From Alphaproteobacteria bacterium (GTDB lineage Bacteria > Pseudomonadota > Alphaproteobacteria > MPNO01): 64,000 nt of DNA. A program made the position numbers and the translations under genes. The stretch is from NCBI GenBank assembly GCA_964291675.2, contig OZ219866.1, forward strand, positions 1,984,001 to 2,048,000. Reading direction: 5' to 3'. The notes under the pieces are model-generated. The model was not told where the DNA came from, searched no databases, and saw nothing but the letters and a program-made list of their open reading frames with translations. This document shows positions 11,968 to 30,467 of this stretch, in pieces; position 1 is the stretch's first letter; every line of letters starts with the position of its first letter.

Positions 11968-14334
11968 TTGACGGAGCCGGTTCTCGAAGGCGGCGCGATC
12001 GGCAGTTCCGCGCCGCGCATCGCCGCCCGGCGGCTCGCGCATGGGCGCGGCCGCTATACCGACGACATCGTGCTGCCCCGGATGCTGCACGCGGCCTTCG
12101 TGCGCAGCGCGCACGCCCATGCGCGGATCGTCCGCATCGACGGCGCGGAGGCGGCCCGCCGGCAAGGCGTGTTCCGCGTGGTGACCGGCGCCGATCTCGC
12201 CGGCATCTGCCGGCCCATGCTGGCGATCGCGGCCCATCGGCCGGGCCACAAATCCGCGCCCCAGCCGCCGATGGCGCAGGGAACCGCGTACTGGCAGGGC
12301 CAGCCCGTCGCCGCGGTGGTGGCCGAGAGCCGCGCGGCGGCGGAGGACGCGGCCGAGCTGGTGGAAGTCGAATACGAGCCGCTCGATCCGGTGGCCGACC
12401 CGGCCGAGGCGCTCGCCCCCGGGAGTCCGGCGATCCATCCCGAGCTCGGCGACAATCTGGCGTTTGCGCACCGCATCGAGGTCGGCGATGTCGATGCCGC
12501 CTTCGGCTCGGCCGCCGCGGTGGAGGAACAGGATTTGGGCTTCGGCCGCCACACCGCGGTCACGCTGGAGCCTCGGGTGACCATCGCCGATTACCAACCC
12601 GCCGACGGCACCCTCGTCGTCCACCAGTCGCACCAGTCGCCCTATCAGATGCAGGAGGTCTATGCCGCCCTGCTCGGCATCGACGATCACCGGGTGCGGG
12701 TGATCTGCCCCGACGTGGGCGGCGGGTTCGGGCTCAAGATCAACGTCCATGACGACGAGATCGCGACGGCGGCGATCGCCCGGCTCCTGGGCCGGCCGGT
12801 CAAGTTCTGCGCCGACCGCCTGGAAGCCTTCGGTGCCGACGCGCATAGCCGCGATCACACGGTGCGCGGGCGCATCGCGGTGTCGGAGAGCGGCGAGATC
12901 CTCGCCATGGAGGTCGACGACCTGTCTGCGATCGGGGCGTATACCGCCTTCATCCGCTTCGGCATCGCCGAGGGCATGATGACGATCACCAATGCCGGCG
13001 CGCCCTATCGCGTGCCGGCCTATCGCGGCGCGATGCGGGCGGCCTATGTCAACAAGCCGATCGTCGGCATGTATCGCGGCGTCGGCGTGCCGATCGCCTG
13101 CGCCGTCACCGAGCAGCTCTGCGACCTGGCCGCGCGCGCGATCGGCATGGATCCGGTCGCCTTCCGCCGGATCAACTATCTCGATCCCGATACCCTGCCC
13201 GGCGCGTCCATAGGCGGCATCCAGCTCCCGCGCATCGAGTTTTCGCGCGCGCTCGACCGGCTGGTGGAGACGATGGGATATGACGCGCTTCGCGCCGAAC
13301 AGGCCGCGCTGCGCAAGAGCGGCATCCATCGCGGCATCGGGGTCGCGACCTTCATCGAGCCGACCGCCTACGGTCCCGGCTATTACGGCCCGTCCGAGGC
13401 GCCGGTCTCGACCCAGGAGGGGACCACCGTCAAGCTCGAACCGTCGGGCAGGGTCCGCTGCATCACCAGCGTCACCGACCAGGGGCAGGGCACGCTCACC
13501 GCGATCGCCCAGATCGTCGCCGACCAGCTCGGCGTCGGCATCGACGAGATCGACACGATCGCCGGCGACAGCGCGGTCACCCCGTTCGGCGGCGGCGCCT
13601 GGGCGTCGCGCGGCCTGGCGATGGGCGGCGAGGCCTCGCTCGAAGCCGCGCTCGCGCTGAAACGGAACGTTCTCGCCATCGCCGGGCCCATGCTGCAGGC
13701 CGATCCGGCGAGCCTCGACCTGAAGCGCGGCGCGGTGGTCGACCGCGACGGCGGCACGCCCCGGCTCTCGCTCGGCGAAGTCGCGCGCATCGGCCATTTC
13801 CGCCAGGACACCCTGCCCGCCGATCTCCAGCCGGAGCTCGCCGTCACCCGCCACCACGTGCCCAACCGGGCGCATTACTACGTCGCCTACGGCGCTCTCG
13901 GCTGCCATCTCGAACTCGATCCGGAGACCGGCTCGATCGAGCTGCTCGGGGTCTGGGTGGCCGACGAGTGCGGCCGCATCGTCAACCCGCTTCTGGTCGA
14001 CGAACAGCTGCGCGGCGGGGTCGTCCAGGGGCTCGGCGCGGCGTTCTTCGAGGAATGCGTCTATGACGGCGGCGGGCAGCTTCTCAACGGCACGCTTGCC
14101 GATTACCTCGTGCCGATGGCGACCGACATCCCCGACATCGCGACCGCCCATATCGACGGGCTGGAGGAGACCACCAGGCTCGGCGCCAAGGGCGTGGGCG
14201 AGGGGGGGACCATAGGCGCCACCGCCGCCGCCTGGCTCGCGGTCAACGATGCGCTGGCGCCCTTCGGGGAAACGGTCTCGGCGCAGCCCTTCACCCCGGA
14301 ACGCATCCTCGCGGCGATCGAGGGCCGGGGATGA
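11968..14334 (+). CDS. Xanthine dehydrogenase family molybdopterin-binding subunit
   Basis: GRGRYTDD, DVGGGFGLK, MYRGVG, DQGQG, GAKGVGE. Confidence 0.92.
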   Translation: MTEPVLEGGAIGSSAPRIAARRLAHGRGRYTDDIVLPRMLHAAFVRSAHAHARIVRIDGAEAARRQGVFRVVTGADLAGICRPMLAIAAHRPGHKSAPQPPMAQGTAYWQGQPVAAVVAESRAAAEDAAELVEVEYEPLDPVADPAEALAPGSPAIHPELGDNLAFAHRIEVGDVDAAFGSAAAVEEQDLGFGRHTAVTLEPRVTIADYQPADGTLVVHQSHQSPYQMQEVYAALLGIDDHRVRVICPDVGGGFGLKINVHDDEIATAAIARLLGRPVKFCADRLEAFGADAHSRDHTVRGRIAVSESGEILAMEVDDLSAIGAYTAFIRFGIAEGMMTITNAGAPYRVPAYRGAMRAAYVNKPIVGMYRGVGVPIACAVTEQLCDLAARAIGMDPVAFRRINYLDPDTLPGASIGGIQLPRIEFSRALDRLVETMGYDALRAEQAALRKSGIHRGIGVATFIEPTAYGPGYYGPSEAPVSTQEGTTVKLEPSGRVRCITSVTDQGQGTLTAIAQIVADQLGVGIDEIDTIAGDSAVTPFGGGAWASRGLAMGGEASLEAALALKRNVLAIAGPMLQADPASLDLKRGAVVDRDGGTPRLSLGEVARIGHFRQDTLPADLQPELAVTRHHVPNRAHYYVAYGALGCHLELDPETGSIELLGVWVADECGRIVNPLLVDEQLRGGVVQGLGAAFFEECVYDGGGQLLNGTLADYLVPMATDIPDIATAHIDGLEETTRLGAKGVGEGGTIGATAAAWLAVNDALAPFGETVSAQPFTPERILAAIEGRG

Positions 14335-16676
14335 GCGAAGCCGCGATCGGGCGTTCCATCGCGCGCCCCAACGCGCGGCGCGCCGCCTCCGGCCGCGGCC
14401 GTCACGTCGCCGATCTCGCATTCAGGCGGCTGGTCGATGTCGCCTTCGTCCGCTGCCCCTACGCCCATGCCCGGATCGTGTCGATCGACACGGGGGAGGC
14501 GGCGGCGCAGCCGGGCGTGGCGGCGGTGCTCACGGGGGCGGAACTCGCCGAGCGCACCCGGCCGTGGCTGGGCACGATGAAGAACGCGCCTTCTCTCCTC
14601 TCCGTTCCGCAATACGGCATGGCGGTCGATTGCGCGCGCTGGCAGGGCGAGCCCGTCGCCGCGGTCGCCGCCGAGGGCCGGGCGCGCGCCGAGGACGCGG
14701 CCGAGCGCGTCGCCGTCGTCTGGGAAGAGCTTGAGCCGGTTGCCGACATCGAGACCGCCCTCGACGACGGAGCCCCGATCCTCCACCCCTCGCTCGGCAC
14801 CAACCGGCTGTATGACCGCGTTGTCGACACCGGGGACGCGGCAGCCGCCTTCGCCGCCGCGGATGTCGTCGTCGAAGGGCAGTTCCGCTTCGGCCGGCAT
14901 ACCGGCGTGCCGCTGGAGGCCCGGGCGATCGTCGCGGAGTACGACCCGGGCGACCGCAGGCTCACCTTGCACTATGGCGGGCAGGCGCCGCACATGACGC
15001 AGATCCTGTTCGCCCGTCATCTCGGGCTGGAGGAACGCCAAGTCCGGGTGATCGCCTACGACGTCGGGGGCGGGTACGGCATCAAGAGCCATCACTACGG
15101 CGACGAGTTCACCGCCGCCGCGCTGGCGATGCTGCTCGCCCGCCCGGTGCGGTACTGGGCGGACCGGCTGGAATCCTTCGTCTCCGACATCCACGCGCGG
15201 GACCACGCGGTCCGCGGCCGGCTCGCGGTGGAGAAGGACGGCCGGATCGCGGCGCTGGAGATCGACGACCTGGTCGGTGCCGGCGCCTATTCGTCCTACC
15301 CGCGCACCAGCTCGGTCGAGGCCAACCAGGTCCTCAATGTCTCCGGCGGACCCTACGCGATAGCCAACTACCGGGCGCGCACCCGGGTCGTGTTCCAGAA
15401 CAAGGTGCCGATCTCGCAATATCGCGGGGTCGGCCATCCGATCGCGATCCTGACCGTGGAGGCCCTGATCGACCGCGCCGCCGCCGCGCTCGGCACCGAC
15501 CCGGCGGAGCTGCGGCGGCGGAACTTCGTGCCCGACGACGGCTATCCGGTAAAGGCCCCGTCCGGCGTCGGGCTCGACGACCTGTCGCACCAGGCCTGTC
15601 TCGCAAAGCTGCTGGAGCTGATGGACTACGACGCGCTCCGCGCCGACCGGGACGAGAAGCGCAGCCGGGGCGCGCTCTGCGGCATCGGGCTCGCCTCGTT
15701 CATCAAGGGCACCAACCCGGGGCCGCAGATCTACGGACCCGCGGGCGTGCCCATCTCGGCGCAGGACGGGTGCACCGTCAGGCTCGAGCCGTCCGGCGCG
15801 GTGACCTGCCTCGCCGGCGTGACCGAGCAGGGCCAGGGCACCGAGACCGTCCTCGCCCAGGTGGTCGCCCAGTCGGTCGGCGTGCCCTTCGAGGCGGTCA
15901 CCGTGATCACCGGCGACACCGATGCGGTGCCCTATGGCGGCGGCACCTACGGCTCGCGCGGCGGCGGAATCGGCGGCGAGTCGGCGAGGCGCGCGGGCGA
16001 GGCGCTGCGCGGCGAGATCCTCGATCTCGCAGGCGCGCTGCTCCAGGCCGAGCCCGGATCGCTCGCCTTGCGCGACGGCGCCGTGGTCGAGCGCGCCGGC
16101 GGCGCCCCGCGCATGACCCTCGCCGAGCTGGGCGATCTCGCCTTCTTCCGCTGCGGCGAGCTGCCCGACGGGGTCTATCCCTCGCTCACCCAGACCCGCC
16201 GCTTCCGGGTGCCGGAATACGTGTTCACCAACGGCGCCCACGGGGCCCGGATCGAGGTCGATCCCGAGACCGGGGAGGTCCGCATTCTCGGCTACTGGGC
16301 GGTCGAGGACGGCGGGCGGCTGATCAACCCCCTGCTCGCGGAGGAGCAGCTTCGCGGCGCCATCGTCCAGGGGCTCGGCGACGCGCTCTACGAGCACAGC
16401 CTGTACGACCGCGACGGCCAGCTTCTCAACGGCACCATGGTCGACTACCTGGTGCCGATGGCGGCCGAGATGCCCGATATCGTGCTCGCCCATGTCGAGA
16501 CCCCGACCTCGGTCTCCGGCCTCGGCGCCAAGGGGGTGGGCGAGTCCGGCACCGCCGCCGCGCCCGGCACGGTGTTCAACGCGGTGAACGACGCGCTGGC
16601 GCCGCTCGGCGCCGCCGTGGAGGCGATACCGATCACGCCCGAATCGGTCCTCGCCGCGCTCGGCCGCGCCCGGTGA
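14331..16676 (+). CDS. Second xanthine dehydrogenase family molybdopterin-binding subunit
   Basis: DVGGGYGIK, QYRGVG, EQGQG, GAKGVGE; ATGA overlap with the previous gene. Confidence 0.92.
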   Translation: MSEAAIGRSIARPNARRAASGRGRHVADLAFRRLVDVAFVRCPYAHARIVSIDTGEAAAQPGVAAVLTGAELAERTRPWLGTMKNAPSLLSVPQYGMAVDCARWQGEPVAAVAAEGRARAEDAAERVAVVWEELEPVADIETALDDGAPILHPSLGTNRLYDRVVDTGDAAAAFAAADVVVEGQFRFGRHTGVPLEARAIVAEYDPGDRRLTLHYGGQAPHMTQILFARHLGLEERQVRVIAYDVGGGYGIKSHHYGDEFTAAALAMLLARPVRYWADRLESFVSDIHARDHAVRGRLAVEKDGRIAALEIDDLVGAGAYSSYPRTSSVEANQVLNVSGGPYAIANYRARTRVVFQNKVPISQYRGVGHPIAILTVEALIDRAAAALGTDPAELRRRNFVPDDGYPVKAPSGVGLDDLSHQACLAKLLELMDYDALRADRDEKRSRGALCGIGLASFIKGTNPGPQIYGPAGVPISAQDGCTVRLEPSGAVTCLAGVTEQGQGTETVLAQVVAQSVGVPFEAVTVITGDTDAVPYGGGTYGSRGGGIGGESARRAGEALRGEILDLAGALLQAEPGSLALRDGAVVERAGGAPRMTLAELGDLAFFRCGELPDGVYPSLTQTRRFRVPEYVFTNGAHGARIEVDPETGEVRILGYWAVEDGGRLINPLLAEEQLRGAIVQGLGDALYEHSLYDRDGQLLNGTMVDYLVPMAAEMPDIVLAHVETPTSVSGLGAKGVGESGTAAAPGTVFNAVNDALAPLGAAVEAIPITPESVLAALGRAR

Positions 16677-19337: not shown

Positions 19338-21434
19338 CTACTGGTGGTGGTGCAGCACCTCCGAGTAGGTCGGGAACGGCCACGCGCGGCCGTCCACCAG
19401 GAGCTCCAGCCGGTCCGCCACGTCGCGCGCGGATTGCATGCACGGTTTCAGGGCCTCGTGCGCGTATGACGCGGCCCCTCCCGGATCGTCGTGCGGGAAG
19501 GCGTCGTACGCATCGGCGAGTCTTTCGGTTTCCGAAAGCAGCTCTTCGACGAGCGCGCGCTTCTTGTCGAACATCGGCGACTGGAACCCGGAGTCGCGGT
19601 CGGCGCGGGTGTCCTCGATGGCGACAGGGAGGATCTGGGTCCTGAGGATGCGCAGCAGCGCGCGCGCCTCGATGTGGAGCTCGGTGGCGTAGGCCTCCTG
19701 CAGGACGTTCTGACGCGCCACGAGCTCGTGCTCGTTGAGGATGCCGAGCTCGCCCATCAGCTTGACGTTCTTCTCCGCCGTCAGGGCCTCGTAGGCCTCC
19801 GGGCTGCTCCTGAGGTGGATCAGGCCGTGCTTCTCGGCGTGCTCGTAAAGAGCGTCGGAGTAGCCGTCGCCGCTGAACAGGGCGCCCTGGTTTTCCTGAA
19901 TGGTCTCGCGGATCACCTGATCGACGGGCTTGCCGGCGTCGACCTCGTCGCACATGTGCTTCAGGCTGTCCGCGATCGCCGCGTTCACCATGGTCAGCGG
20001 GAACGCGATATGCTGGTTGCCGCCCACGGCGCGGAACTCGAACCGGTTGCCGCACCACGGGAACGGCGCGGTGCGGTTGCGGTCCTCCAGATTGGCCCGC
20101 ACGTCGGCGACCGGGGCCACGATCTCGATCTCCTTGCGCTCGTTTCCGTAGCCCGCGAAGTCGCCGCCCTCGGCGACCGCCTTCACATGGGCTTCCAGGC
20201 GCTCGCCCAGATGCAGGGTGATGATCGCCGGCGGCGCCTCCTGGGCGCCGAGCCGGTGGTCGTTGCCGGCCGTCGACACGCCGCAGCGCAGCAGGTCGCC
20301 GTGCCGGTTGACCCCGCGCAGCAGGGCCGCGACGAAGGCGATGAAGCGCCGGTTCTCTTCCGCGGTCTCCCCCGGCACGAACAGGTTGGCGCCGGTGTCG
20401 GTGTTGAGCCCCCAGTTGTTGTGCTTGCCGGTGCCGTTGATGCCGGCGAAGGGCTTCTCGTGAAACAGGATGGTGAAGCCGTGGTCGAAGGCGAGGTCGC
20501 GAAGCACGTCCATGGCGAGCACGTTGGTATCCGCCGCGAGGTTGGCGAGGCCGAAGACCGGCGATATCTCGTGCTGCGCGGGGGCGACCTCGTTGTGGGT
20601 GCAATGGATCGAGATTCCGAGCTCCCACATCTTGTCGCGCGCCTCCGCCACGTAGCGGTTCACCCTGGGCGACAGCTTGGAGAAATAGTTGCCGTCCATC
20701 TCCTGGCCGCGCAGCGGCGCCGCGCCCAGCAGCGTGCGCCCCGCGGCCACCAGGTCGGGCCGCGCCAGGTACTTCTCCCGGTCGATCAGGAAGAACTCCT
20801 GCTCCCAGCCCACATTGCACACGACCTCCCTGGTCGAGCTGTCCCCGAGCAGCGAGAGCAGCCGCACGCTTTGCTCGTTGACCGCCATGTCGGCCCGCAA
20901 GAGCGGGGTCTTCTGGTCGAGGGCCTCGCCGTTCCAGGTCACGAAGGCGGACGGGATGTAAAGCGTCTGCCGGTAGACGAAGGGCGGCGATCCGGTGTCC
21001 CAGCCGATATAGGCCGCCGCCCGATGGGTCTCGCGCAGCCCGCCATTGGGGAAGGAGGAGCCGTCGGTCTCGGTCTGGAACAGCTCCGAGCCCGTCAGGT
21101 TGATGATCAGGCGATCGGTGGCGAAATCCACCCCGACGAAGGTTTCCAGCTTCTCGCCGTGGATCGCGCCCCGCATCGGCGAGAACCAGTGCGAATAGCC
21201 GATGCAGCCCTTCGACTGCGCCCATTCGCGAATCGACTTGGCCAGCGCGTTCGCGAAATCCCGATCCATCGGCACGCCCGTCGCGCGGCACTGGGCGAGC
21301 GCGTAGTAGACGTCCGGATCGACCAGCTTCTTCAGTATCGAGTCGTCCAGCACATTGCTGTTGATCATCGCCAGGGCCGGCGGGAGGGCTACCTCCTGGG
21401 TCGGTGCCTCGTGCGTGGAGTGCGTGATTGCCAT
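19338..21434 (-). CDS. glnN: Glutamine synthetase type III
   Basis: 698 aa; ETDGSSFPNGGLR, GWEQEFF, HNEVAPAQHE, HEKPFAGINGTGKH, DHRLGAQEAPP, DRNRT, NRFEFR. Confidence 0.93.
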   Translation of the reverse strand: MAITHSTHEAPTQEVALPPALAMINSNVLDDSILKKLVDPDVYYALAQCRATGVPMDRDFANALAKSIREWAQSKGCIGYSHWFSPMRGAIHGEKLETFVGVDFATDRLIINLTGSELFQTETDGSSFPNGGLRETHRAAAYIGWDTGSPPFVYRQTLYIPSAFVTWNGEALDQKTPLLRADMAVNEQSVRLLSLLGDSSTREVVCNVGWEQEFFLIDREKYLARPDLVAAGRTLLGAAPLRGQEMDGNYFSKLSPRVNRYVAEARDKMWELGISIHCTHNEVAPAQHEISPVFGLANLAADTNVLAMDVLRDLAFDHGFTILFHEKPFAGINGTGKHNNWGLNTDTGANLFVPGETAEENRRFIAFVAALLRGVNRHGDLLRCGVSTAGNDHRLGAQEAPPAIITLHLGERLEAHVKAVAEGGDFAGYGNERKEIEIVAPVADVRANLEDRNRTAPFPWCGNRFEFRAVGGNQHIAFPLTMVNAAIADSLKHMCDEVDAGKPVDQVIRETIQENQGALFSGDGYSDALYEHAEKHGLIHLRSSPEAYEALTAEKNVKLMGELGILNEHELVARQNVLQEAYATELHIEARALLRILRTQILPVAIEDTRADRDSGFQSPMFDKKRALVEELLSETERLADAYDAFPHDDPGGAASYAHEALKPCMQSARDVADRLELLVDGRAWPFPTYSEVLHHHQ

Positions 21435-21657: not shown

Positions 21658-22107
21658 TTGGGAAGGTCTATAGAACACGCCGTGCTCCATTTTTCACTGA
21701 TCAATGACTTGCGAGAACTTGGCGTTGCCGCGGCGAAAGTCGACGCGTTCTGCGCCGAGCACGGCGTGTCGCGGGATATCGCATTCGCCGTCAACGTGTC
21801 GGTCGACGAGCTGCTGACCAACACCATCAGCTACGGTTTCGACGACGGCGAATCGCACCGAATCGAAATGACCGTCCGCATCGAGGACGACGTGCTGGTG
21901 ATCGAGCTGGTGGATGACGCCACGCCCTACGATCCGACCCGTGCGCCGCATCCCGACATCGACGCGCCGATCGAGCGGCGCCCCATAGGTGGGCTCGGCG
22001 TCCACTTCGTCCGCGAATTGATGGACGGCTTCAGCTATCGCCGCAGCGAGGGGCGCAATATCGTGACCCTGACCAAGCGGACGGGAGACCGTCCGGCGGA
22101 GGGGTAG
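21658..22107 (+). CDS. RsbW/SpoIIAB-like anti-sigma factor / serine kinase (HATPase_c)
   Basis: ELLTNTISYG (N box), DDATPYDP, GGLGVHFV; start uncertain. Confidence 0.88.
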   Translation: MGRSIEHAVLHFSLINDLRELGVAAAKVDAFCAEHGVSRDIAFAVNVSVDELLTNTISYGFDDGESHRIEMTVRIEDDVLVIELVDDATPYDPTRAPHPDIDAPIERRPIGGLGVHFVRELMDGFSYRRSEGRNIVTLTKRTGDRPAEG

Positions 22108-22115
22108 CCCGGCGC

Positions 22116-24680
22116 TCACACCTTGCCGTTGTAGCGCAACACGAGACAGGTGATGTCGTCCGACTGCTCGGCGTCGCCCACGAACTCGCCGACGGCCAGG
22201 GTGACGTTGCCGATCACCGTATCCACCGGCGCTCCCGGACCGATCGAAAGCGCGTTCTCGAGACGACTCTCGTCGAAGGTTTCGCCCTGAATGTTCATCG
22301 CCTCGGAAATGCCGTCGGTATAGAGAAACAGCGTATCGCCGACGCCGAGCGTCACCCGGTTCTCGTCGTATTCCAGCTCCGGCAAGACGCCGACGGCCAC
22401 GCCGCCGGTCAAGGGCAGTGTCTCGATGGCGCCGGTGTTTCGGATCAGGAAGGGCGCGTTGTGACCGGCATTCGCGTAGCTGAGGGTCCCCGTCTGCGGG
22501 TCCAGGATGCCGTAGAACAAGGTCACGAACAGGTCGTGCGGGTTCTCGGAGGAGATCCGGTCGTTGACCACGCGCATGCAGGCGCCGGCCTGGCCGATCT
22601 CCTGGGCGCTGGCGCGCATGACCGTCCGCGTGATCGCCATGAAGAACGCCGCAGCCACGCCCTTGCCGGAGACATCGGCGATCACCAGGCCGAGCCGGCC
22701 GTCCGGCAGGCTGAAATAGTCGTAGAAATCGCCAGCCATCTCGCGCGCCGGCGTCATCACCGCATCGCCCGAATAGGCGGTATCGGGCGGCAGGGTCTTG
22801 GGCAGGATCGCGTGTTGCAGGGAATGCGCGACCGCGAGCTCGTCTTCCATGCGCCGGTTGGCCTCGTCGAGGAGGGCATTCTTGTTCGCGAGGTCGAGCG
22901 TGCGCTCGGCGACCAGGGCCTCCAAATGCTCCCGCCGGGCCTGAACCTCGCGCGCCATCGTCTGGAAGGTGTGGATCAGCCGCCCCAGCTCGTCGCGCCG
23001 CTCGCGGTAGGGGTCGAGCGAATCGGGCTTGAAACTGCCCTGGTCCATTTCTCCCGCCGCCTGGGTCAGCGCGGTGACCGGCCGCGTGATGCGCCGAGCC
23101 GACATGACCGCGGTAACCGCGCCGATCAGAAACGCCGCCAGCGTGATCGCGAGTCCGAAATCGATATAGTCGCCCAGCAATTCGTCGAGATGGTCGCGCG
23201 GCATGTGGATCACCGCGACACCCGTGGCGACGCCGCCGCGATCCAGGATCGGCGCGGCGACGTGGAGCGCCCTGTCGCTGAGGAAGGATTCCGCGGTCCC
23301 CTGGACGGCCCGGCCCGCAAGCGACTTGTCGGCGGAACCGAAAACCGGTTGCTCCGCGCTGCGCAAGGCGCCGGCGGCGACGGCGGCGGTGACCTTGAGG
23401 GCTTCGTCGACGACCCAGATCGCTCTTATGCCCGGCTGGGCGGCCAGCGAGTCGAGCGCCGCGGCGAGGCCGATCGTATCGCGCAGGCCCGTCGTCTTGT
23501 CGGCAAGGCTGCCGACCAGGACCGACCTGCCGTGGCGCGAGCGAACCCCGATATAGCGCAGCGGCACCTCCAGACCGTCCCTGGGTACGGATCGGAACGA
23601 CACCGAGAAGCGCTTCCCCGAGATCAGGGTCTGGAGGACCGGGCTGTCCACATCCCGAAGCGACATGTCGACGCCGGAACGGCCGAGTCCCTCGATCGCG
23701 CGCACCGCCGGCGTTCCCGTGTCGTCGAGCACCCAGATATCGTCGACCGCGCTGTTCGCCGCGATTTCCGCCAGTTCGATCGCGAGCGCCCGATCGTCGT
23801 CCCTCAGAACATCCGCAAGATGGGCCACCGCTATGGCCTGCGCCTCGTTCTCGGCGACGATGACGCGGTCGATCTGGTCCGCGATCACGCCGACCCGGTT
23901 GGCCTCGCTGGCGATCAGCCCGGCCACCATCCTGGCCTGGTTCTCGGCCTGCTCGATCAGCGTGTTGCGCGCCAGCAATCCCAGCGCCACCGCCACGCTG
24001 AGAATGGCGATGCCCACCGATGCGGAGACGATCAGGATCAGATGCCGGGACAGGCTGATGCTGGCATCGCGGCGACGCACGTGGGCGAACCGCATGACCA
24101 GGGCGACGACGCCGGCAAAGGCGAGGAACCAGGCCATCGCATAGAGGTAGATCCAGAAAGAGAGCTGCGGCTGGCCGAGCGCGGCGATCACCGTGTCGAC
24201 CCGGAAGACCATTTCCGGGACACCGATAACCGAGGCGGTGGCCGAAGCCATCACGATGATCAGGAAGTAGTTGGTCCACGACGGCAGGAACAGGAGCGCC
24301 TCGGTGGTCTGGCCGCGCCTGAGATGCCGCAACGCGGCGAGCGCGTTGTCCGAGACGAACCCCGCGACCGCGATCGAAAGCGCGAGCGAGGCCTTGATCC
24401 ACACCGGCACGATGACCGTCGTGCCGAACAACACGAAACTCCCCGGGACCATATAGGCGAGGTAGAACAGCATGACGAAGGTCGGCGCGCTGGCGGCGAG
24501 CATCGTCAGCGCGCCGGCGCCCTGGCTCACGCGGCGCAGGCGGCCGCCGCGCAGTGCCGCCAGAGCCCCCCCGAGCACCGTGCCGATCGCCATCGCGACC
24601 AGCGAGACCAGCATGTTCCAGCCGAAACCGACCGCCAGATAGGGCGTCCAGGTAATCAGGACGTCGATGACATTGGGCAT
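22116..24680 (-). CDS. Fusion protein: amino-acid ABC permease-like domain + TM/periplasmic sensor + HAMP + PP2C (SpoIIE/RsbU-type) phosphatase
   Basis: N-terminal ~200 aa HisM-like TM pattern (LVSLVAMAIGTVLG, ASVIGVPE); two further TMs flank a periplasmic region; HAMP (ITRPV...DELGRL..F..M); PP2C motifs AGDFYD, IADVSGKG, NAGH, YTDGISEA, SDDIT; single uninterrupted ORF. Confidence 0.88.
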   Translation of the reverse strand: MPNVIDVLITWTPYLAVGFGWNMLVSLVAMAIGTVLGGALAALRGGRLRRVSQGAGALTMLAASAPTFVMLFYLAYMVPGSFVLFGTTVIVPVWIKASLALSIAVAGFVSDNALAALRHLRRGQTTEALLFLPSWTNYFLIIVMASATASVIGVPEMVFRVDTVIAALGQPQLSFWIYLYAMAWFLAFAGVVALVMRFAHVRRRDASISLSRHLILIVSASVGIAILSVAVALGLLARNTLIEQAENQARMVAGLIASEANRVGVIADQIDRVIVAENEAQAIAVAHLADVLRDDDRALAIELAEIAANSAVDDIWVLDDTGTPAVRAIEGLGRSGVDMSLRDVDSPVLQTLISGKRFSVSFRSVPRDGLEVPLRYIGVRSRHGRSVLVGSLADKTTGLRDTIGLAAALDSLAAQPGIRAIWVVDEALKVTAAVAAGALRSAEQPVFGSADKSLAGRAVQGTAESFLSDRALHVAAPILDRGGVATGVAVIHMPRDHLDELLGDYIDFGLAITLAAFLIGAVTAVMSARRITRPVTALTQAAGEMDQGSFKPDSLDPYRERRDELGRLIHTFQTMAREVQARREHLEALVAERTLDLANKNALLDEANRRMEDELAVAHSLQHAILPKTLPPDTAYSGDAVMTPAREMAGDFYDYFSLPDGRLGLVIADVSGKGVAAAFFMAITRTVMRASAQEIGQAGACMRVVNDRISSENPHDLFVTLFYGILDPQTGTLSYANAGHNAPFLIRNTGAIETLPLTGGVAVGVLPELEYDENRVTLGVGDTLFLYTDGISEAMNIQGETFDESRLENALSIGPGAPVDTVIGNVTLAVGEFVGDAEQSDDITCLVLRYNGKV

Positions 24681-24682
24681 CG

Positions 24683-26311
24683 CTAGGCCCCGTGCGCCCT
24701 GCGTTCCCAGCTGCGGAGCGCCCACACCGTGGCGAAGACCAGCAGGAAGTAGCACAGCAGCAGCAGGTTCATCATCACGGCGTCATTGCCCTTTTCGGCG
24801 ATGATCGCCGTGCTCGCGTGTACCAGCTCCGGCAAGGCGAGCGTGCTCGCCATCCCGGTGGCCTTGACGATATTGACGGAATTGCCGGCCACGGCGGCCT
24901 GGCACAGCTCCAGCGCGCGGCGGAATTCGCGCCAGGTGAACCCCAGCTTGCCGCCGGGCTCGGCCGCCACGTCCGCGGCCAGGGAGAACGACACCGCGTT
25001 GCTGGCCGCGGCATAGAGCGACAGCACCGCGGCGGCGAGCGAGAACGCATCCAGCGTGAAGCCGTAGGCGAACAGGATGCCGCCGATCCCGAAGAAGAAG
25101 ACGTAGAGCTGAAGCAGCGGGGGCGTCATCCGCAGCACCGCGCAGAACGCTTGCAGCAGCGGCGCCACGACAACCGTCCGGCGATGCAGGACCCAGCCGA
25201 ACAGGGCGCCGAGGACGACGCTGCCCAGCACGGTCGCGACCGAGAGCGCGACGGTCAGGAACAGGCCATGCAGGAACACGCTCCGGTCGAGCGGGTCGTA
25301 GACCGGGCTGACATCGAGCCCCGTCGCCTCCTTGAACGCCATGGATATCCCCGAAATTCCGCCCAACTCCTCGCTGGTGATCAGCGCGCGCTCCCGGCAC
25401 TCCAAAGGCCAGTTGCCGGTCTCGTCGCGGCGGCATCGGAGTTCGCCCGATTCGTCGGTTTCCTTCCAGGTCTCGTGCGCCCGCCGCAGATAGGGCGAGG
25501 GGGGCAGGCTCCACGTCTTCTCCAGCGCCTGGAAAAACCCCTCGCGATGCCACGCGGCCACGGTGTCGCCGAACAGGCGGTCGAGTCGTCCTCCGGCCTC
25601 CTCCTTTGCGATGGCGATCGCCCAGGGCGCGACGAATCGCGTCGGCAGGGCCACGGTGTAACCGTCCCACTCCCCGCTCGCCAGGGCGCTGAGCAAGTTG
25701 ACCTCGTCGTACAGCCAGCCCACGCAGTGTCCGTTGCGCAAGGCGAGCGCGGCTTCCCGGGTGGAGTTGAGGGAAATCGTCTCGACCAGGAGGCGTTGCG
25801 CGGCCAGGCGGTTCCAGATCGAGCCCTGCACGCTGCACAGCGTCCGGCCGCGGAGGCCTTCCCAGGTCGAGATCCCCGAGTCTTCGCGCATCAGCACGTT
25901 GGCGCCGTCGCCGTAATACTGGGGCTCGATCATGTGCACCAGCCGGCGGCGGCTGCGGTTGTCGCCCAGCGTGGCGATAACGACGTCGATCTCGCCGCGC
26001 GCGAGCTTCTGCAGACGGTTGGCGCTGGTCACCGGTGTCAGCCGCAGCGCAACACCGATCGCGTCCGCCAGGCCGCGCGCGACATCGACGTCGTAGCCCA
26101 CCAGCCTGCCGGAATCGTTGCGCACGCCGAAGGGATGGTAGTCCGCCTTGACGCCGGCGATCAGGTGGCCCCGAGCCCGGATCTCGTCCAGCCGATCCGC
26201 CGTTGCCGGCGCCGCGACCGACAGCCAGGCGGCGCTCAGGACGACCAGTCGGGCGAGACGGAAGAACCGCCGGGGCGCGACATTCACAAACGAAAGACCG
26301 GCAGGTCTCAC
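24683..26311 (-). CDS. Fusion protein: polar amino-acid substrate-binding domain (SBP_bac_3) + ABC permease domain
   Basis: Signal peptide; GVKADYHPF, GYDVDVA, RGEIDVVIA; C-terminal TMs with RMTPPLLQLY and VKATGMAS.LALPEL. Confidence 0.88.
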   Translation of the reverse strand: MRPAGLSFVNVAPRRFFRLARLVVLSAAWLSVAAPATADRLDEIRARGHLIAGVKADYHPFGVRNDSGRLVGYDVDVARGLADAIGVALRLTPVTSANRLQKLARGEIDVVIATLGDNRSRRRLVHMIEPQYYGDGANVLMREDSGISTWEGLRGRTLCSVQGSIWNRLAAQRLLVETISLNSTREAALALRNGHCVGWLYDEVNLLSALASGEWDGYTVALPTRFVAPWAIAIAKEEAGGRLDRLFGDTVAAWHREGFFQALEKTWSLPPSPYLRRAHETWKETDESGELRCRRDETGNWPLECRERALITSEELGGISGISMAFKEATGLDVSPVYDPLDRSVFLHGLFLTVALSVATVLGSVVLGALFGWVLHRRTVVVAPLLQAFCAVLRMTPPLLQLYVFFFGIGGILFAYGFTLDAFSLAAAVLSLYAAASNAVSFSLAADVAAEPGGKLGFTWREFRRALELCQAAVAGNSVNIVKATGMASTLALPELVHASTAIIAEKGNDAVMMNLLLLCYFLLVFATVWALRSWERRAHGA

Positions 26312-27066
26312 GGCCGGGCCACGATCAGGAAACCGTAGCCGACCGCCACCGGGGCGAGCGCGCAGGCCAGATCGTCGAGCCAGCCCAGCAGCGGGTTGCC
26401 GACCACCGCGGTCTCCGGCAGCAGGCTTTCCGGCTCGACGCTCTCGATTCGGAAGCCGGCGGACGACAATTCATCGCGTGCCTCGGCGGGCGAGAACAGG
26501 TGATAGAACATCTCGATACTACCAGCCTCCGAACGGCGCGCGTACAAAACATCGCCGGGCTCCAGATCGCCGTCCCGCACCATCGGGGCCGCGGCGCGCT
26601 GCTCCGCGTGGAACCGGCGTCGCGCATTGGGCAGGCTGAGCACCAGAACGCCGTCCGGCTTGAGGATTTCCCGAATCGCGGCGAGCAGAGCCGCGCGCTC
26701 CTTCCGCCCCGCCACATGGGCGAGGACGCCGAATGCGAGCAGTGCGAGGTCGAACCCGCGTGGAAACGACTGGGCGAGAGCCGTCGCGTCGGCGTTGCGC
26801 ACCGAGAGGCGTCCGCCGCCGACGAAAGTCGCCAGACGCTCCGACAGCATGTGGCAGGCGGTCGGGCAGACGTCGTAGGCCATGCCCGTTGCGCTTGTGT
26901 GTTGCAAGAGGGGCAGGGTGTAGCGCCCCGTCCCGGCGCCGAAATCGACGAAGCGGCCCTCCGCCGGCATCAGGCGCAGCACCCTCCGCAGCGTGCGCCG
27001 ATTCGGGGCGGGATAGCGGCGGTCGTAGAGCCCCGACGCCAGATACTCATCGTAGCTGTGGGACAT
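26308..27066 (-). CDS. Class I SAM-dependent methyltransferase
   Basis: VDFGAGTGR motif I, LKPDGVLVL; stop overlaps the next start (GTGA); start could lie further upstream. Confidence 0.85.
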   Translation of the reverse strand: MSHSYDEYLASGLYDRRYPAPNRRTLRRVLRLMPAEGRFVDFGAGTGRYTLPLLQHTSATGMAYDVCPTACHMLSERLATFVGGGRLSVRNADATALAQSFPRGFDLALLAFGVLAHVAGRKERAALLAAIREILKPDGVLVLSLPNARRRFHAEQRAAAPMVRDGDLEPGDVLYARRSEAGSIEMFYHLFSPAEARDELSSAGFRIESVEPESLLPETAVVGNPLLGWLDDLACALAPVAVGYGFLIVARP

Positions 27067-27267
27067 ATCCGGCGTGGTTGCCTGGGGCTCGGCCACACCG
27101 GCGGCCACGCAATCCTTGATGCCGCTGGGTGAAATGTTGGCGTCTCCACTGGCCCCATCGAGATGCGGATGCATCTCGTCGAGATTGAAAATGCGGGCTG
27201 CGCCGCCCGATAGCGGTGAGCGGCGCTCAAATTCTCCCGATCGCCGATAAATTCTGCCCGGGTTCGA

Positions 27268-27339
27268 GATTGTCGATGCCTCCATTGTTGACAATTTTGG
27301 CCTCCGGTTCAAATAGTAAGTCCAGACGGCTCGACAATC
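27268..27339. promoter_or_regulatory. Candidate operator cluster in the divergent promoter region
   Basis: GATTGTCGA (27268-27276) and its exact reverse complement TCGACAATC (27331-27339) flank near-palindrome ATTGTTGACAAT (27284-27295), which contains TTGACA. Confidence 0.45.
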
Positions 27340-27434
27340 GAAAACCGGCTGCGACCGTTTGTCGCAGAGGCGGTCGGTCCGGGCCGCGCCATGGGCCGAA
27401 TCCCCGACCGGCCGATCGAGAGGAGCAAGGCAAG

Positions 27435-28340
27435 GTGAAGCTGCGACGAGCGGGCCGGTTGAGCTTCCCGAGGGCGGCGGTCGCGCTGACCGGTGCGGTG
27501 CTGGCGACGGTCAGCTTCGCGGCGACGGCGGCGGAGAGCGTCCTGACCCGAATCGCCGAGGACGGAATGCTCCGCGCCGGCACCCGGGCCAGCGCCGCGC
27601 CCTTCGCCCAGAAATTGCCGACGGGAGAATTTCGGGGATTCTCCGTCGATCTTCTGCAGGATATCCGGGCTGCGGTGCAGCGCGAGGTGGGCCGCCCGGT
27701 GCGCATCGAGCTTCATGAAGTCACGCCGAGCGACCGTCTGCAGCGGGTCGCCCGGGGCGAGCTCGATATCGTCTGCGGCATCACCACGCCGACCTGGGAC
27801 AGGGAGGCGACCGTCGATTTCTCGCTACCGTTCTTCCGCGACGGTACCCGGGTGATGGTATACCGGCGCGGCGCCGGAGAGACCGTCGATGTCGCCAAGC
27901 TCAATATCGGCGTCGTCAAGGGCACCACGACCGTCGACGTTCTCAAGAACAACCTCCCGGGGACGCGGCTCAGCGAATTCCCCAACATGGCCGCGGCGAT
28001 GAGCGGGTTCGAGAAGGGCGAGGTCGACGGGGTCGCCAATGTCGGCGTCGTGCTGCTCGGTCTCGCCGAGCGCAGCGAGCCGCGGCGCAGCGTCGTGCTG
28101 CTGCCGAGGACCCGATCCCTGGCGACCGAGAGCCTCGCCTGCGTGCTGCCGCAGAACGACAGCCGCTGGCGGGATCTGGTCAACCGAACCCTGATCCGCA
28201 TGTTCGGCGACGTGCGGCAGTTCAGGGGACGCTACGAGGAAATCTACAATCGCTGGTTCGGGCGGGACGGCGCGCTGTTCTACCCGCTCGATCGCGCGAC
28301 CCGCGACTATCTCGCCGACGTGTCCATCTGGGCCAAGTAG
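27435..28340 (+). CDS. Polar amino-acid ABC substrate-binding protein (GltI-like)
   Basis: Signal peptide; GTRASAAPF, GFSVDL, DIVCG.TT.T..RE..VDFS. Confidence 0.88.
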   Translation: MKLRRAGRLSFPRAAVALTGAVLATVSFAATAAESVLTRIAEDGMLRAGTRASAAPFAQKLPTGEFRGFSVDLLQDIRAAVQREVGRPVRIELHEVTPSDRLQRVARGELDIVCGITTPTWDREATVDFSLPFFRDGTRVMVYRRGAGETVDVAKLNIGVVKGTTTVDVLKNNLPGTRLSEFPNMAAAMSGFEKGEVDGVANVGVVLLGLAERSEPRRSVVLLPRTRSLATESLACVLPQNDSRWRDLVNRTLIRMFGDVRQFRGRYEEIYNRWFGRDGALFYPLDRATRDYLADVSIWAK

Positions 28341-28539: not shown

Positions 28540-30027
28540 ATGTCGCACATCGCGAATTCGATCGGATTGACGGCTACCGAACGCAGGGCCGGGCGTGGGT
28601 CGACCCCGTCAGGCGCCGCGCGGTTCGATGCGGGACACCGCGACGGCGCTCGGGACACCGGCGTCTCGCCGGGATGGCGGCGCGCCGCCCCGCTCGGGCT
28701 CGCCGTCGCCGCCCTGCTTCTGCTCCCGGCGGACGCGCATGCGGCGGTGGCCGACGAGACGCAATTCGTCCTGAACAGCTTCTCGTTCCTGATCTGGGGC
28801 GCGCTGGTGATGTGGATGTGCGCCGGTTTCACCATGCTCGAATCGGGCTCGGTGCGGACCAAGAACGCCTCGGTCATCTGCCTCAAGAATATCGGCCTCT
28901 ACTCGATCGCCGGGCTGATGTTCTACCTCGTCGGCTACAACATCATGTATGTCGGGGTCCCCGAAGGCGGCTGGTTCGGCACGCTGACGCTGTTCTACGG
29001 CACCACCGGCGAAGAAAAGGCGCTGCTCGGCGGCGGCGGCGACGCGGCCAAGGCGGGCGCCGCGGTGGTCAAGAACGGCTATTCGACGATGTCCGACTGG
29101 TTCTTCCAGATGGTGTTCGTCGCCACCACCGCCTCGATCGTCTCCGGCACGCTGGCCGAGCGGGTGAAGCTCTGGTCCTTCCTGCTGTTCATCACCGTGC
29201 TCACGGCGATCATCTACCCGGTCATCGGGTCATGGACCTGGGGCGGCGGCTGGCTGTCGGCGATGGGCTTCCAGGACTTCGCCGGTTCGACGATCGTCCA
29301 CTCCACCGGCGGCTGGGCGGCGCTTGCCGGGGCGCTGGTGGTCGGCGCGCGGAAGAACAAGTTCCGCGCCGACGGCAGCGTGAAGGTCACCCCGCCATCC
29401 AACGTGCCCGCAGTGACGCTCGGCGTGTTCATCCTCTGGCTCGGCTGGTTCGGGTTCAACGGCGGCTCGCAGCTCGCGCTCGGCGGCGCCGCCGACGCGG
29501 TGGCGATCAGCAACATTCTCGCCAACACCAATCTCGCCGCGGCCGCGGGGGTGATCGCCGCGATGGCGCTGTCGCGTCCGGTTCTCGGGCGCGTCGATCT
29601 TCTCGCCAGCCTGAACGGCGCGATCGGCGGCCTGGTGGCGATCACCGCGGGGCCCGACATCGTCCAGCACTACTGGGCGGTGATAATCGGCGCGGTCGGC
29701 GGCTGCATCGTGGTCCTCGGGATCAAGCTGCTCGACCGGCTCAAGATCGACGACGTGGTCGCGGCGGTTCCGGCGCATCTGTTCGCCGGCGTGTGGGGCA
29801 CGCTCGCGGTGTGCATCGCCGCGGGCGGCGATATCGTTGCGCAGATCACCGGCATCCTGGCCATCGGGGCGTTCGTGTTTGCCGCCTCGTGGGTGGTATG
29901 GTGGGCGATCGATTCGACCATCGGCGCGCGCGTCACGCCGATAACGGAAGAGCTGGGGCAGGATGTCGCGGAGCTGGGCATCGAGGCCTATCCGGAATTC
30001 GTCGTCGTCCCCGACATGGACGACTGA
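28540..30027 (+). CDS. amt: Ammonium transporter (Amt)
   Basis: GFTMLESG.VR.KN, FFQMVF, DFAGSTIVH, WFGFNGGS, IDDVVAAVPAH; twin His and Phe gate apparently intact. Confidence 0.96.
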   Translation: MSHIANSIGLTATERRAGRGSTPSGAARFDAGHRDGARDTGVSPGWRRAAPLGLAVAALLLLPADAHAAVADETQFVLNSFSFLIWGALVMWMCAGFTMLESGSVRTKNASVICLKNIGLYSIAGLMFYLVGYNIMYVGVPEGGWFGTLTLFYGTTGEEKALLGGGGDAAKAGAAVVKNGYSTMSDWFFQMVFVATTASIVSGTLAERVKLWSFLLFITVLTAIIYPVIGSWTWGGGWLSAMGFQDFAGSTIVHSTGGWAALAGALVVGARKNKFRADGSVKVTPPSNVPAVTLGVFILWLGWFGFNGGSQLALGGAADAVAISNILANTNLAAAAGVIAAMALSRPVLGRVDLLASLNGAIGGLVAITAGPDIVQHYWAVIIGAVGGCIVVLGIKLLDRLKIDDVVAAVPAHLFAGVWGTLAVCIAAGGDIVAQITGILAIGAFVFAASWVVWWAIDSTIGARVTPITEELGQDVAELGIEAYPEFVVVPDMDD

Positions 30028-30128
30028 GGAATGGCTTGCCTGCCCGAGCGGCCCGCATTCGAGTACAATGGGGCGCCGCACCGGCCGAAGGCGTGCGTTC
30101 ATAGAAGCAGCCGCAGGACACGAAGACG

Positions 30129-30467
30129 ATGGATTTGACGACTGAACGAAGCGAAAACGTCGTGTGCGTGGACGTGAAGGGGCGAATCGACGGGTCCACC
30201 GCCGTCGCCTTCGAGGAGTCTGTGCGCAACGCGCTCGAGGAATCCGACCGCGCCATGATCATGGATTTCCGGGAGCTCGCCTATATCAGCAGCGCCGGGC
30301 TCCGGGTGATCCTGCTGACGGCGAAGTCGCTGCAGAGCCAGGACGCGAAGCTGGTGCTGTGCTCGCTTTCCGATCAGATTCGCGAAGTGTTCAAGATCAG
30401 CGGCTTCGACAAGCTTCTGCCGATTCACGAGACCAGGGAGGAGGCGCGCGAGTCGCTCGGCGCCTGA
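30129..30467 (+). CDS. STAS domain anti-sigma factor antagonist (RsbV/SpoIIAA-like)
   Basis: GRID, YISSAGLR containing the phosphoacceptor Ser, VFKISGF. Confidence 0.92.
   Translation: MDLTTERSENVVCVDVKGRIDGSTAVAFEESVRNALEESDRAMIMDFRELAYISSAGLRVILLTAKSLQSQDAKLVLCSLSDQIREVFKISGFDKLLPIHETREEARESLGA

Follow-up and report, generated by a model that had tools for sequence, protein, structure and literature searches.

An ABC-importer membrane domain without its coupling helix is fused to a sensor phosphatase: a candidate transporter-derived receptor for partner switching in Alphaproteobacteria

The present analysis concerns a window of 64,000 nucleotides (nt) from an alphaproteobacterial genome (GTDB lineage MPNO01; assembly GCA_964291675.2, contig OZ219866.1, positions 1,984,001 to 2,048,000 of the forward strand) and, within this window, a gene at positions 22116 to 24680 of the minus strand that encodes a protein of 854 amino acids (aa). 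The N-terminal part of the protein resembles the transmembrane domain (TMD) of a type I ATP-binding cassette (ABC) importer, and its remainder is a membrane-bound sensor phosphatase of the PP2C/SpoIIE family. On balance, we favour the reading that the protein belongs to an ATPase-less, transporter-derived receptor core that descended from a polar-amino-acid ABC importer, no longer transports and feeds a partner-switching pathway. The features of the gene and of the gene directly upstream, which encodes a substrate-binding protein (SBP) domain and a second TMD and is referred to as SBP::TMD, are listed below with their positions in the window and the transmembrane (TM) helices concerned.

22116-24680, minus strand: fusion gene, 854 aa, comprising a relic ABC TMD, a linker, a TM helix, a double-PDC sensor, a TM helix, a HAMP domain, a coiled-coil linker and a PP2C domain
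24081-24680, minus strand: relic type I ABC-importer TMD of the polar amino-acid family, aa 1-200, with five TM helices and an outside N-terminus and without a coupling helix
24276-24320, minus strand: shortened cytoplasmic loop between TM3 and TM4, aa 121-135 (RRGQTTEALLFLPSW), from a MAFFT alignment with canonical relatives
24042-24080, minus strand: basic cytoplasmic linker at the fusion junction, aa 201-213 (VRRRDASISLSRH), where split relatives have a stop/start overlap or a short spacer
23166-23975, minus strand: predicted periplasmic double-PDC (dCache-like) domain, aa 236-505, from model and fold searches
22941-23099, minus strand: HAMP domain, aa 528-580 (Pfam PF00672, E 1.1e-9, 38.8 bits against a cut-off of 25)
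22119-22763, minus strand: PP2C/SpoIIE phosphatase domain, aa 640-854 (Pfam PF07228 at aa 659-850, E 6.2e-49, 167 bits against a cut-off of 25)
24683-26311, minus strand: SBP::TMD gene, 542 aa, with a signal peptide, an SBP domain (aa 30-267), a linker and a second relic TMD (aa about 345-530)

The open reading frame (ORF) of the fusion gene begins with an ATG at 24680 and ends with a stop codon at 22116-22118. A longer variant starting with GTG at 24755 would run into the upstream gene, the TAG of which is located 2 nt before the ATG; the GTG start is apparently unused, since the nine orthologues of the fusion protein all align from the MPNV start. The single 854-aa ORF proposed in the original prediction, which was made from the sequence without database searches, is thereby retained. 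According to hydropathy and positive-inside charge, the protein has an outside N-terminus, five TM helices, a basic cytoplasmic linker, a TM helix directed outward, about 270 periplasmic residues, a TM helix directed inward and the HAMP domain, the helices flanking the periplasmic domain being placed at about aa 214-235 and about aa 506-527. This predicted topology is what a working fusion requires. A Pfam search with the 854-aa protein yielded HAMP and SpoIIE/PP2C as the sole families, and the public record names the protein 'SpoIIE family protein phosphatase' and nothing more. Neither a permease/PP2C architecture nor an ATPase-less ABC sensor was found described in the full-text literature searched, most subscription journals and supplements being outside its scope, which agrees with the earlier remark that no characterised protein of this architecture was known.

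The origin of the N-terminal domain was deduced from profile and structure comparisons. A profile of the TMD from nine orthologues matched ArtQ (4yms_D), the permease of Art(QN)2, over its full length with an E value of 5.6e-9. The AlphaFold model of aa 1-205, based on 43 aligned sequences, reached a mean pLDDT of 95.4 and a pTM of 0.89 and displays the five-helix fold of type I importer TMDs. The top Foldseek match of this model was likewise 4yms_D (E 1.9e-6, TM-scores 0.74/0.71), followed by MetI, OppB/C, DppB/C, MalF/G, SugA and PstC. A feature search of the ESM Atlas with aa 1-205, to be taken as a lead only, returned clusters designated 'ABC transporter permease subunit' or hypothetical with values of 0.90-0.94. 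The curated permease cut-offs (PF00528 and TIGR01726) are not reached by the N-terminal TMD: the Pfam family BPD_transp_1 (PF00528) gave no match at E<=10 to either relic TMD, the segment aa 1-205 included, and the NCBIfam models remained below threshold, with 27.3 bits (E 2.8e-6, cut-off 300) for the cystine ABC permease model NF011680 at aa 1-126 and 20.5 bits (cut-off 42.2) for HEQRo_perm_3TM (TIGR01726) at aa 13-111.

The most conspicuous departure from canonical permeases is located between TM3 and TM4, where neither an EAA motif nor a coupling helix is present in the N-terminal TMD. A MAFFT alignment with the nearest canonical relatives in a library of representative proteins revealed that exactly 20 residues are absent from this loop, a deletion that is family-wide; the canonical sequence 'GQWEAAxxLxxxxxQxxxxIxLPQxxxRMxPPWM' is faced by 'RRGQTTEALLFLPSWT' in the fusion protein. 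The hidden Markov model (HMM) alignment of the TMD with ArtQ opens a gap at the same EAA loop, and in the structural model the helices 93-121 and 131-152 are connected by nine residues (122-130) that contain one helical turn (125-128). Judged from its sequence, the HisM-like permease that had been assigned to aa 1-200 is indeed an ABC-importer TMD, but a decayed one that has lost the ATPase-docking loop, and the notion of a working permease is not sustained, the EAA loop and an ATPase both being absent.

The shortened loop is characteristic of a sizeable family. With the TMD as query, the representative library contains 567 members at E<=1e-3, of which 176 remain at a threshold of 1e-10 and 42 at one of 1e-30. 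When the query was combined with those of the 150 best library representatives that span the loop region (83 sequences), 66 of the resulting 84 rows carried the short loop and 18 the canonical loop of 36 residues. A quick maximum-likelihood tree, unrooted and restricted to the 72 rows with 170 aa or more (55 with the short and 17 with the canonical loop), placed the canonical members on one side of a single branch (SH-aLRT 99), and one change of state suffices to explain the distribution. Median dN/dS values from ten fused genes (45 pairs) amounted to 0.17 for the TMD, 0.23 for the linker with the following TM helix, 0.20 for the dCache-like domain, 0.12 for HAMP with its linker and 0.13 for PP2C; these ratios indicate that the relic TMD is maintained by purifying selection.

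The second relic TMD is encoded by the SBP::TMD gene, which thus supplies both an SBP partner and a second membrane domain. Its SBP part matches SBP_bac_3 (Pfam, E 2.6e-21) and TIGR01096 (E 2.1e-25). The TMD part scores 35.7 bits with HEQRo_perm_3TM, again below the cut-off of 42.2; its profile matches ArtQ with an E value of 0.0088, and the EAA consensus is absent.

The TMDs of the cluster are without an ATPase partner. For the comparative search, 67 species-level loci were collected with a nine-row orthologue alignment and inspected together with flanks of 7 kb, and ATPases were recognized by the simple pattern Walker-A plus LSGG[QEM]. An ORF with such a pattern was present within 7 kb in 18 of the 67 loci, and none of the typed ATPases is of the GlnQ/HisP type. 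Seven of the 18 were typed, namely as ZnuC (L054, L058), PotA/PhnT2-like (L066, L080, L087), ModC (L097) and UrtE/LivF-like (L102). In the window and in eight loci of 12-19 kb the pattern was detected solely far from the cluster (at 49986 and 60602 of the window and at 1154 of L016), the ATPase of L016 being UrtE/LivF-like. The source genome, which is 93.7% complete, encodes five GlnQ-type ATPases at E<=1e-60, each of which has two canonical HEQRo permeases above the cut-off within 2 kb; the two relic TMDs, both below the cut-off, are the sole paired HEQRo matches of this genome that lack a GlnQ-type ATPase. A cognate ABC ATPase was accordingly found neither in the 67 loci nor in the source genome. 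An ABC ATPase gene beside the free SBP gene of the cluster in the subgroup of L054 was considered as a partner and rejected, as it is of the ZnuC type. In this subgroup (L054-L065, L068 and L091) the methyltransferase gene of the cluster is missing, and the divergent strand carries the gene of the ZnuC-type zinc ATPase just 3' of the free SBP gene.

The phosphatase part of the protein was examined in the same manner. An AlphaFold model of aa 205-590, based on 30 sequences (pLDDT 80.1), predicts the order long helix, PAS-like module, helix, second PAS-like module, TM2 and HAMP, with a helix at 6-88, strands at 110-188, a helix at 189-209 and strands at 216-290 in the numbering of the model. Foldseek searches with this model retrieved the dCache ligand-binding domains 2p7j, 3lid, TlpQ, Tlp3, KinD, McpH and TlpA with E values of 1e-7 to 1e-5 and a probability of 1.0; the TM-scores were low (0.27-0.47), as expected because of the attached long helices. 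VIA-align assigned the distal module to WalK, CitA and DcuS with Z values of 13-14 (root-mean-square deviation 2.6-3.0 over 117-131 residues), and comparisons spanning both modules gave Z values of 10.5-11.9, with 11.9 for KinD (173 residues, model positions 41-290), 10.7 for DctB (49-286) and 10.7 for Mlp24. The model therefore shows the dCache arrangement of a long N-terminal helix and two PAS-like modules between TM helices. By sequence profiles the domain is hardly recognizable: Pfam dCache_1 reached 15.2 bits against a cut-off of 45, sCache_3_2 and CHASE8 likewise remained below their cut-offs, and a 13-row profile of the periplasmic domain compared with PDB sequences returned chance matches alone (for example SNAP-25, E 0.12). 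Cache-like clusters were retrieved from the ESM Atlas at 0.93-0.96, again as a lead only. The two 'IWV(L/V)D' strings at aa 315-319 and 421-425, from which tandem Cache/PAS-like domains had been proposed, correspond to the first beta-strand of each PDC module, so that model and fold searches agree with that proposal.

The assignment of the C-terminal half, for which a TM helix, HAMP, a coiled coil and a PP2C domain with intact Asp motifs had been anticipated, was confirmed by Pfam, by the motif positions and by the model. The HAMP domain is recognized both by its family score and by its position after TM2, where helices follow in the model. The PP2C domain combines its SpoIIE-family score with the Asp motifs GDFYD (650-654), ADVSGKG (668-674), TDG (788-790) and SDD (840-842), which are invariant or nearly so across 30 aligned homologues and which presumably include the metal-binding residues known for the family. 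The protein is not a SiaA equivalog, as its score with the model NF038263, 106.6 bits, lies below the cut-off of 700 and the match is confined to the HAMP-PP2C part (aa 510-850).

Since relatives exist in which two genes occupy the place of the fusion gene, the junction was examined for an assembly error or frameshift that could have joined them. The unitigs of two sequencing runs, taken from runs that may include the source sample, cover positions 23600-24483 without differences or indels, and the contig of a third such run, which spans 23741-24800, differs by 51 substitutions but has no gaps. A search for full-length homologues, evaluated for 120 of the 140 protein clusters found, identified at least 22 clusters of 853-855 aa with 69-91% identity and 100% query cover, along with at least 97 clusters of 641-673 aa without the TMD (74-76% query cover) and one 597-aa fragment. 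An uninterrupted match to aa 1-853 was found in 10 of 41 related genomes, nine of them among the 12 genomes of the source genus, and the fused form occurs in 12 of the 67 species loci; moreover, the sequence of the junction linker is itself conserved. An artefact is thus rejected on account of the fused homologues in many assemblies and the indel-free contigs of three runs, and its probability is negligible. The coverage and homologue checks suggested in the original prediction hence both spoke for the fusion, and the objection that homologues might exist only as two genes does not apply, as full-length fused homologues exist. The tenth fused carrier among the related genomes, G035 (L018/L044), belongs to another family and has a fused protein of 78% identity, which may reflect transfer or a binning error.

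The fused form is derived. At six places among the 41 genomes, one of them in the source genus, aa 1-202 and aa 204-852 were matched separately by neighbouring genes. The junctions of split forms consist of a GTGA overlap (L013, L014, L020), an ATGA overlap (L016, L017) or a spacer of about 75 nt (L015), at which the fused forms read through. Two kinds of linkers were distinguished among the fused proteins, 'MRFAHVRRRDASISLSRH' (nine loci and the window) and 'MRALRARLGGASGSLSRH' (three loci). In a quickly computed tree of 32 rows for the sensor-PP2C part, the group with 'MRFAHVRRRDASISLSRH' is a clade (SH-aLRT 96) and sister to the split form of L050 (100), and the group with 'MRALRARLGGASGSLSRH' is a clade (100) and sister to the split form of L053 (97). 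Because each fused clade is sister to a split form, two independent TMD::PP2C fusions are indicated, and two adjacent, translationally coupled genes are the commoner and, on this tree, the ancestral state. In the tree, the split cluster of L080, a metagenome-assembled genome (MAG) labelled Anaerolineae, is placed within the clusters from Alphaproteobacteria, for which transfer or a binning error is again conceivable.

A different fusion was detected in Zavarzinia aquatilis, Zavarzinia sp. and Kaistia hirudinis, which account for 3 of the 67 loci and where the TMD is joined to the RsbW-like kinase and the sensor-PP2C gene is located next to it. Two library proteins, P0124 (384 aa) and P0131 (368 aa), likewise consist of a short-loop TMD followed by HATPase_c_2, and this fusion probably arose more than once, since the two proteins fall into different TMD subclades. 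The loci noted with the TMD::HATPase_c_2 fusion are L031/L082 (Zavarzinia aquatilis), L090 (Kaistia hirudinis) and L097. Further short-loop TMD proteins carry a C-terminal SBP-like domain, which is SBP_bac_3 in P0128 and NMT1_3 in P0196 and P0224.

The genes surrounding the fusion gene and the SBP::TMD gene can be described as follows:

21658-22107, plus strand: RsbW/SpoIIAB-like serine kinase or anti-sigma-type protein, 149 aa, convergent to the fusion gene (HATPase_c_2, E 1.2e-24)
19338-21434, minus strand: type III glutamine synthetase (GSIII), divergent from the RsbW-like gene (Pfam GSIII_N, Gln-synt_C and Gln-synt_C-ter)
26308-27312, minus strand: class I S-adenosylmethionine-dependent methyltransferase, first gene of the operon, start uncertain (Pfam Methyltransf_23/12/25/11)
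27216-28340, plus strand: free SBP ('SBP2'), divergent, start uncertain (SBP_bac_3, E 6.2e-21; TIGR04262, E 2e-39, below the cut-off)
28540-30027, plus strand: ammonium transporter (Amt; Pfam PF00909, E 3.1e-93)
30129-30467, plus strand: STAS anti-sigma-factor antagonist, 112 aa, just 3' of the Amt gene (TIGR00377, E 9.1e-26, above the cut-off; PF01740)

The window accordingly displays the order GSIII, RsbW-like gene, fusion gene, SBP::TMD, methyltransferase, free SBP, Amt and STAS, which is unchanged in the eight relatives that were retrieved first, with identities as low as 52%. The stop codon of the methyltransferase gene overlaps the start of SBP::TMD by 4 nt. The stops of the fusion gene and the RsbW-like gene (22107-22116) are 8 nt apart, which leaves no space for separate terminators. 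The free SBP belongs to the polar-amino-acid SBP family and is closest to the model of the 'orphan' GrrP. An alignment of the RsbW-like protein with SpoIIAB and RsbW shows that the E..N of the N-box is retained, and the 'ISSAGL' of the STAS protein aligns with the 'MDSSGL' of SpoIIAA, containing what we take to be the phosphorylatable serine.

Among the 67 loci, SBP::TMD is present in all 67, a sensor-PP2C gene in 58, the free SBP in 56, the methyltransferase in 47, STAS in 41, the RsbW-like gene in 29, Amt in 20 and GSIII in 17, with Amt or GSIII in 21. At least one of the genes for sensor-PP2C, STAS and the RsbW-like protein was found in 59 loci, and all three are encoded together in the window and in 23 loci. 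Twelve of the 58 PP2C genes are fused to the TMD, 37 come after it on the same strand at a distance of up to 205 nt, six come after it with an RsbW-like gene interposed and three are on the other strand; nine loci, three of them short, lack PP2C. The methyltransferase, SBP::TMD and TMD genes are kept without PP2C, RsbW-like or STAS genes in L088, L093, L096 and L098-L102 (Amaricoccus, Roseobacter weihaiensis, Sediminimonas, Paracraurococcus and MAGs), and the ORFs downstream of the cluster in Amaricoccus L098, which has no PP2C gene, matched no Pfam family.

In the window (28540-30467, plus strand) the Amt gene is followed by the STAS gene and not by a glnK-type gene. This order recurs in L014, L016, L017 and L019, that is, in four of the five Amt loci fetched first; the fifth, L013, contains Amt but no STAS match. 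No paper on an Amt-STAS pairing was found in the literature searched. Outside the cluster, at 11968-16676 (plus strand), two ORFs in tandem (788 and 781 aa) resemble by eye the large subunits of molybdopterin-dependent enzymes of the aldehyde-oxidase/xanthine-dehydrogenase type.

In the mechanism that we propose for the receptor core, the two relic TMDs would pair in the manner of HisQ and HisM, and the tethered SBP domain of SBP::TMD would dock on this pair. Docking of the liganded SBP cannot drive ATP hydrolysis, because the EAA consensus is absent from both TMDs, the coupling helix is lost from the N-terminal one and there is no ATPase. The conformational change would pass sideways in the membrane and via the 13-residue linker, reach the dCache-HAMP sensor at its first TM helix and be relayed by HAMP and by the coiled-coil linker to the dimeric PP2C. 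A general mechanism in which coiled-coil linkers connect PPM dimers with HAMP or other sensor domains has been put forward in the accessible part of PMC12143880. The PP2C domain would dephosphorylate the phosphorylated STAS protein, which would then capture the RsbW-like kinase and thereby free a target. An input from the permease/SBP side into PP2C is suggested by the presence of SBP::TMD in this order in 67 of 67 loci, by the two PP2C fusions and by the further fusions to the RsbW-like kinase. The part of the original prediction that invoked such an input is supported by the same gene order and fusions, and the phosphatase may in addition be a dual-input enzyme, with the dCache-like domain receiving either a small ligand or the divergently encoded free SBP. 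Complex prediction for the free SBP and the dCache-like domain gave a score of 0.40 (runs 0.40, 0.49 and 0.37), the best of three controls reaching 0.00, with contacts agreeing to at least 86% between the runs and partner pLDDT values of at least 85. The likeliest signal would be the external supply of amino acids or nitrogen and the likeliest output nitrogen assimilation, because the cluster is located between Amt and GSIII in the source clade. A more far-reaching form of this proposal, which we advance tentatively as quite possible, is an 'ABC transceptor' in which a heterodimer of coupling-helix-less TMDs reads the occupancy of the SBP and, via PP2C or, in other lineages, via the RsbW-like kinase fused to the same TMD, sets a STAS switch governing ammonium uptake and glutamine synthesis; the relic TMDs would then represent a new and widespread sensory class.

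Several observations weigh against a transport-free receptor core. The TMD of SBP::TMD retains a near-normal length of the loop between TM3 and TM4, so that some ATPase could bind to it, and there are known cases of importers sharing an ATPase. Detection of ATPases relied on a simple pattern, and 11 of the 18 ATPases detected were assumed by their position to be like those of L054 or L080. Eight of the 67 loci, three of them short, lack all three partner-switching genes in their flanks, which implies that the TMD pair can occur without them. Near orthologues of the RsbW-like protein have 'DDA(T/R)P(Y/F)DP' in the G1 box, compared with D-x-G in SpoIIAB and RsbW, and the 'DDA' makes their kinase competence uncertain; more distant members show 'DAG', 'DDG' or 'GGE'. 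A sigma factor or another target of the RsbW-like protein did not come to notice next to the cluster, although no systematic search was made. The link to nitrogen may be clade-specific or coincidental, since Amt or GSIII occurs in 21 of the 67 loci, all of them near relatives. Finally, the complex prediction for the free SBP is weak evidence: the score mark was passed by 58 of 80 solved complexes and by 2 of 110 mismatched pairs, and passing scores of 0.60 or less comprise 7 of the 80 solved complexes and both mismatches, so that a score of this kind would more often be wrong than right unless the pairing was likely beforehand.

Some of these observations would suit a working ABC importer subunit whose TMDs borrow an ATPase from elsewhere and whose attached PP2C domain senses flux, as BceS does for BceAB. 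The intact and selectively maintained TMD fold, the tethering of the SBP domain to the partner TMD as in GlnPQ, the loop length of that partner and the precedent of shared ATPases are all compatible with transport. This explanation is nevertheless unlikely in view of the lost coupling helix of the N-terminal TMD and the missing EAA consensus of both TMDs, the scores of both below the family cut-offs, the lack of a GlnQ/HisP type among the typed ATPases of the 67 loci and the fact that each of the five GlnQ-type ATPases in the genome has a permease pair of its own. The TMD pair might also conduct an amino acid or some other nitrogen compound independently of ATP, as a channel or facilitator that the phosphatase merely regulates or by which the phosphatase is regulated. 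Such a role would be in keeping with a translocation-pathway fold retained at high model confidence and with the adjoining Amt and GSIII genes of the source clade; however, the kinase and phosphatase fusions point to signalling, we know of no precedent for a type I ABC TMD acting as a channel, and this possibility is considered very improbable.

The fusion itself could also be a neutral accident, in that a one-base change at the GTGA overlap joined two neighbours whose products, TMD and phosphatase, need not touch. The GTGA/ATGA overlaps at the junctions of split relatives would make such a fusion mutationally easy, and 46 of the 58 loci with PP2C have remained unfused. On the other hand, the TMD was fused twice to PP2C and again to the RsbW-like kinase, and the products were kept in at least ten and in three species-level genomes. 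The linker dN/dS of 0.23 and the suitability of a five-helix, N-out domain followed by an outward TM helix for a working fusion argue in the same direction, and a fusion in the membrane forces a 1:1 stoichiometry and proximity that would rarely be tolerated between unrelated membrane proteins. We therefore regard the accident as about as improbable as the working importer and retain the transporter-derived receptor core as the preferred reading.

The cluster can be compared with several known systems. It shares with the PAAT/HEQRo importers, such as HisQMP2 and Art(QN)2 of Thermoanaerobacter (4YMS), the five-helix N-out fold (TM-score 0.74 to ArtQ), the tandem arrangement of two TMD genes and a polar-amino-acid SBP, but these importers possess the EAA loop and an ATPase, whereas the TMDs of the cluster are below the family cut-offs and are joined or coupled to a sensor phosphatase. 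In GlnPQ of Lactococcus the substrate-binding domains are fused to the TMD, and SBP::TMD similarly tethers an SBP to one TMD. In LuxP-LuxQ and TorT-TorS an SBP binds to a periplasmic tandem-PAS sensor with histidine kinase output. The free SBP gene beside a double-PDC sensor is reminiscent of this arrangement, with binding weakly predicted here (0.40 versus 0.00), although these systems differ in their histidine kinase output and in the lack of an ABC-derived TMD. In Actinobacteria, GlnX is not known to be a homologue of ABC permeases, and the output of its pathway is a Hanks kinase with an FHA protein and not a PP2C/STAS/RsbW switch. The GlnH-GlnX-PknG system resembles the cluster in its logic: as far as the accessible text of PMC6069109, PMC9769921 and bioRxiv 10.64898/2026.07.02.735984 extends, a non-transport periplasmic amino-acid SBP and a dedicated membrane protein feed Ser/Thr phospho-signalling for the control of nitrogen and glutamate metabolism, a control that is proposed for the cluster as well.

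Closer in its output is SiaA of the Pseudomonas aeruginosa SiaABC(D) system (accessible part of bioRxiv 10.1101/674879), which together with RsbU, RsbP and SpoIIE represents the partner-switching phosphatases, here of the membrane HAMP-PP2C kind. The order TM helix, periplasmic domain, TM helix, HAMP and PP2C, the coiled-coil linker into the PPM domain (PMC12143880, in the text available) and the kinase and small phospho-protein substrate encoded nearby are common to both; the cluster differs in its canonical STAS protein as presumed substrate, in the ABC-derived TMD and SBPs of the module, and in that neither a sigma factor nor a diguanylate cyclase was seen adjoining it. The transporter-kinase modules BceAB-BceS and VraFG-GraS (PMC7951975 and PMC4314665, and named in PMC11109136, each as partly accessible) resemble the proposed core in that a signalling enzyme attached to an ABC transporter has its actual sensor in the membrane domain of that transporter, but they are active type VII transporters with ATPases that sense flux and signal through histidine kinases, whereas the cluster combines an ATPase-less importer relic with PP2C. 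The fold of the energy-coupling factor (ECF) S-component, reused in 5TMR-LYT sensor kinases described as prokaryotic 'transceptors' (PMC11109136, accessible text), provides another case in which a signalling protein has acquired its membrane sensor from a transporter fold; there the ECF fold is combined with a histidine kinase, here a type I importer TMD with PP2C or an RsbW-like kinase. The accessible text of that paper contains 'SpoIIE' once and 'PP2C' not at all.

Transporter-derived receptors have long been regarded as rare and eukaryotic, until a prokaryotic example, the ECF S-component fold in LytS-type kinases, was reported in 2024 (PMC11109136, in the part accessible). If the proposed reading is true, the membrane domain of type I ABC transporters, the commonest bacterial importer fold, joins the transporter-derived receptors, and the signature of its changed role is a clean one, since the 20-residue ATPase-docking loop and the ATPase are both lost. 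Cultured carriers of the cluster, namely Zavarzinia aquatilis and Kaistia hirudinis with the kinase fusion and Oryzicola mucosus, Aquamicrobium zhengzhouense and Tianweitania sp. with an unfused operon of TMD, RsbW-like and PP2C genes, make genetics possible. The reading would further offer a testable answer to the question of how a Gram-negative partner-switching phosphatase takes in its signal, and it would tie serine phospho-signalling to the supply of amino acids and nitrogen in Alphaproteobacteria, outside the PII/NtrBC paradigm.

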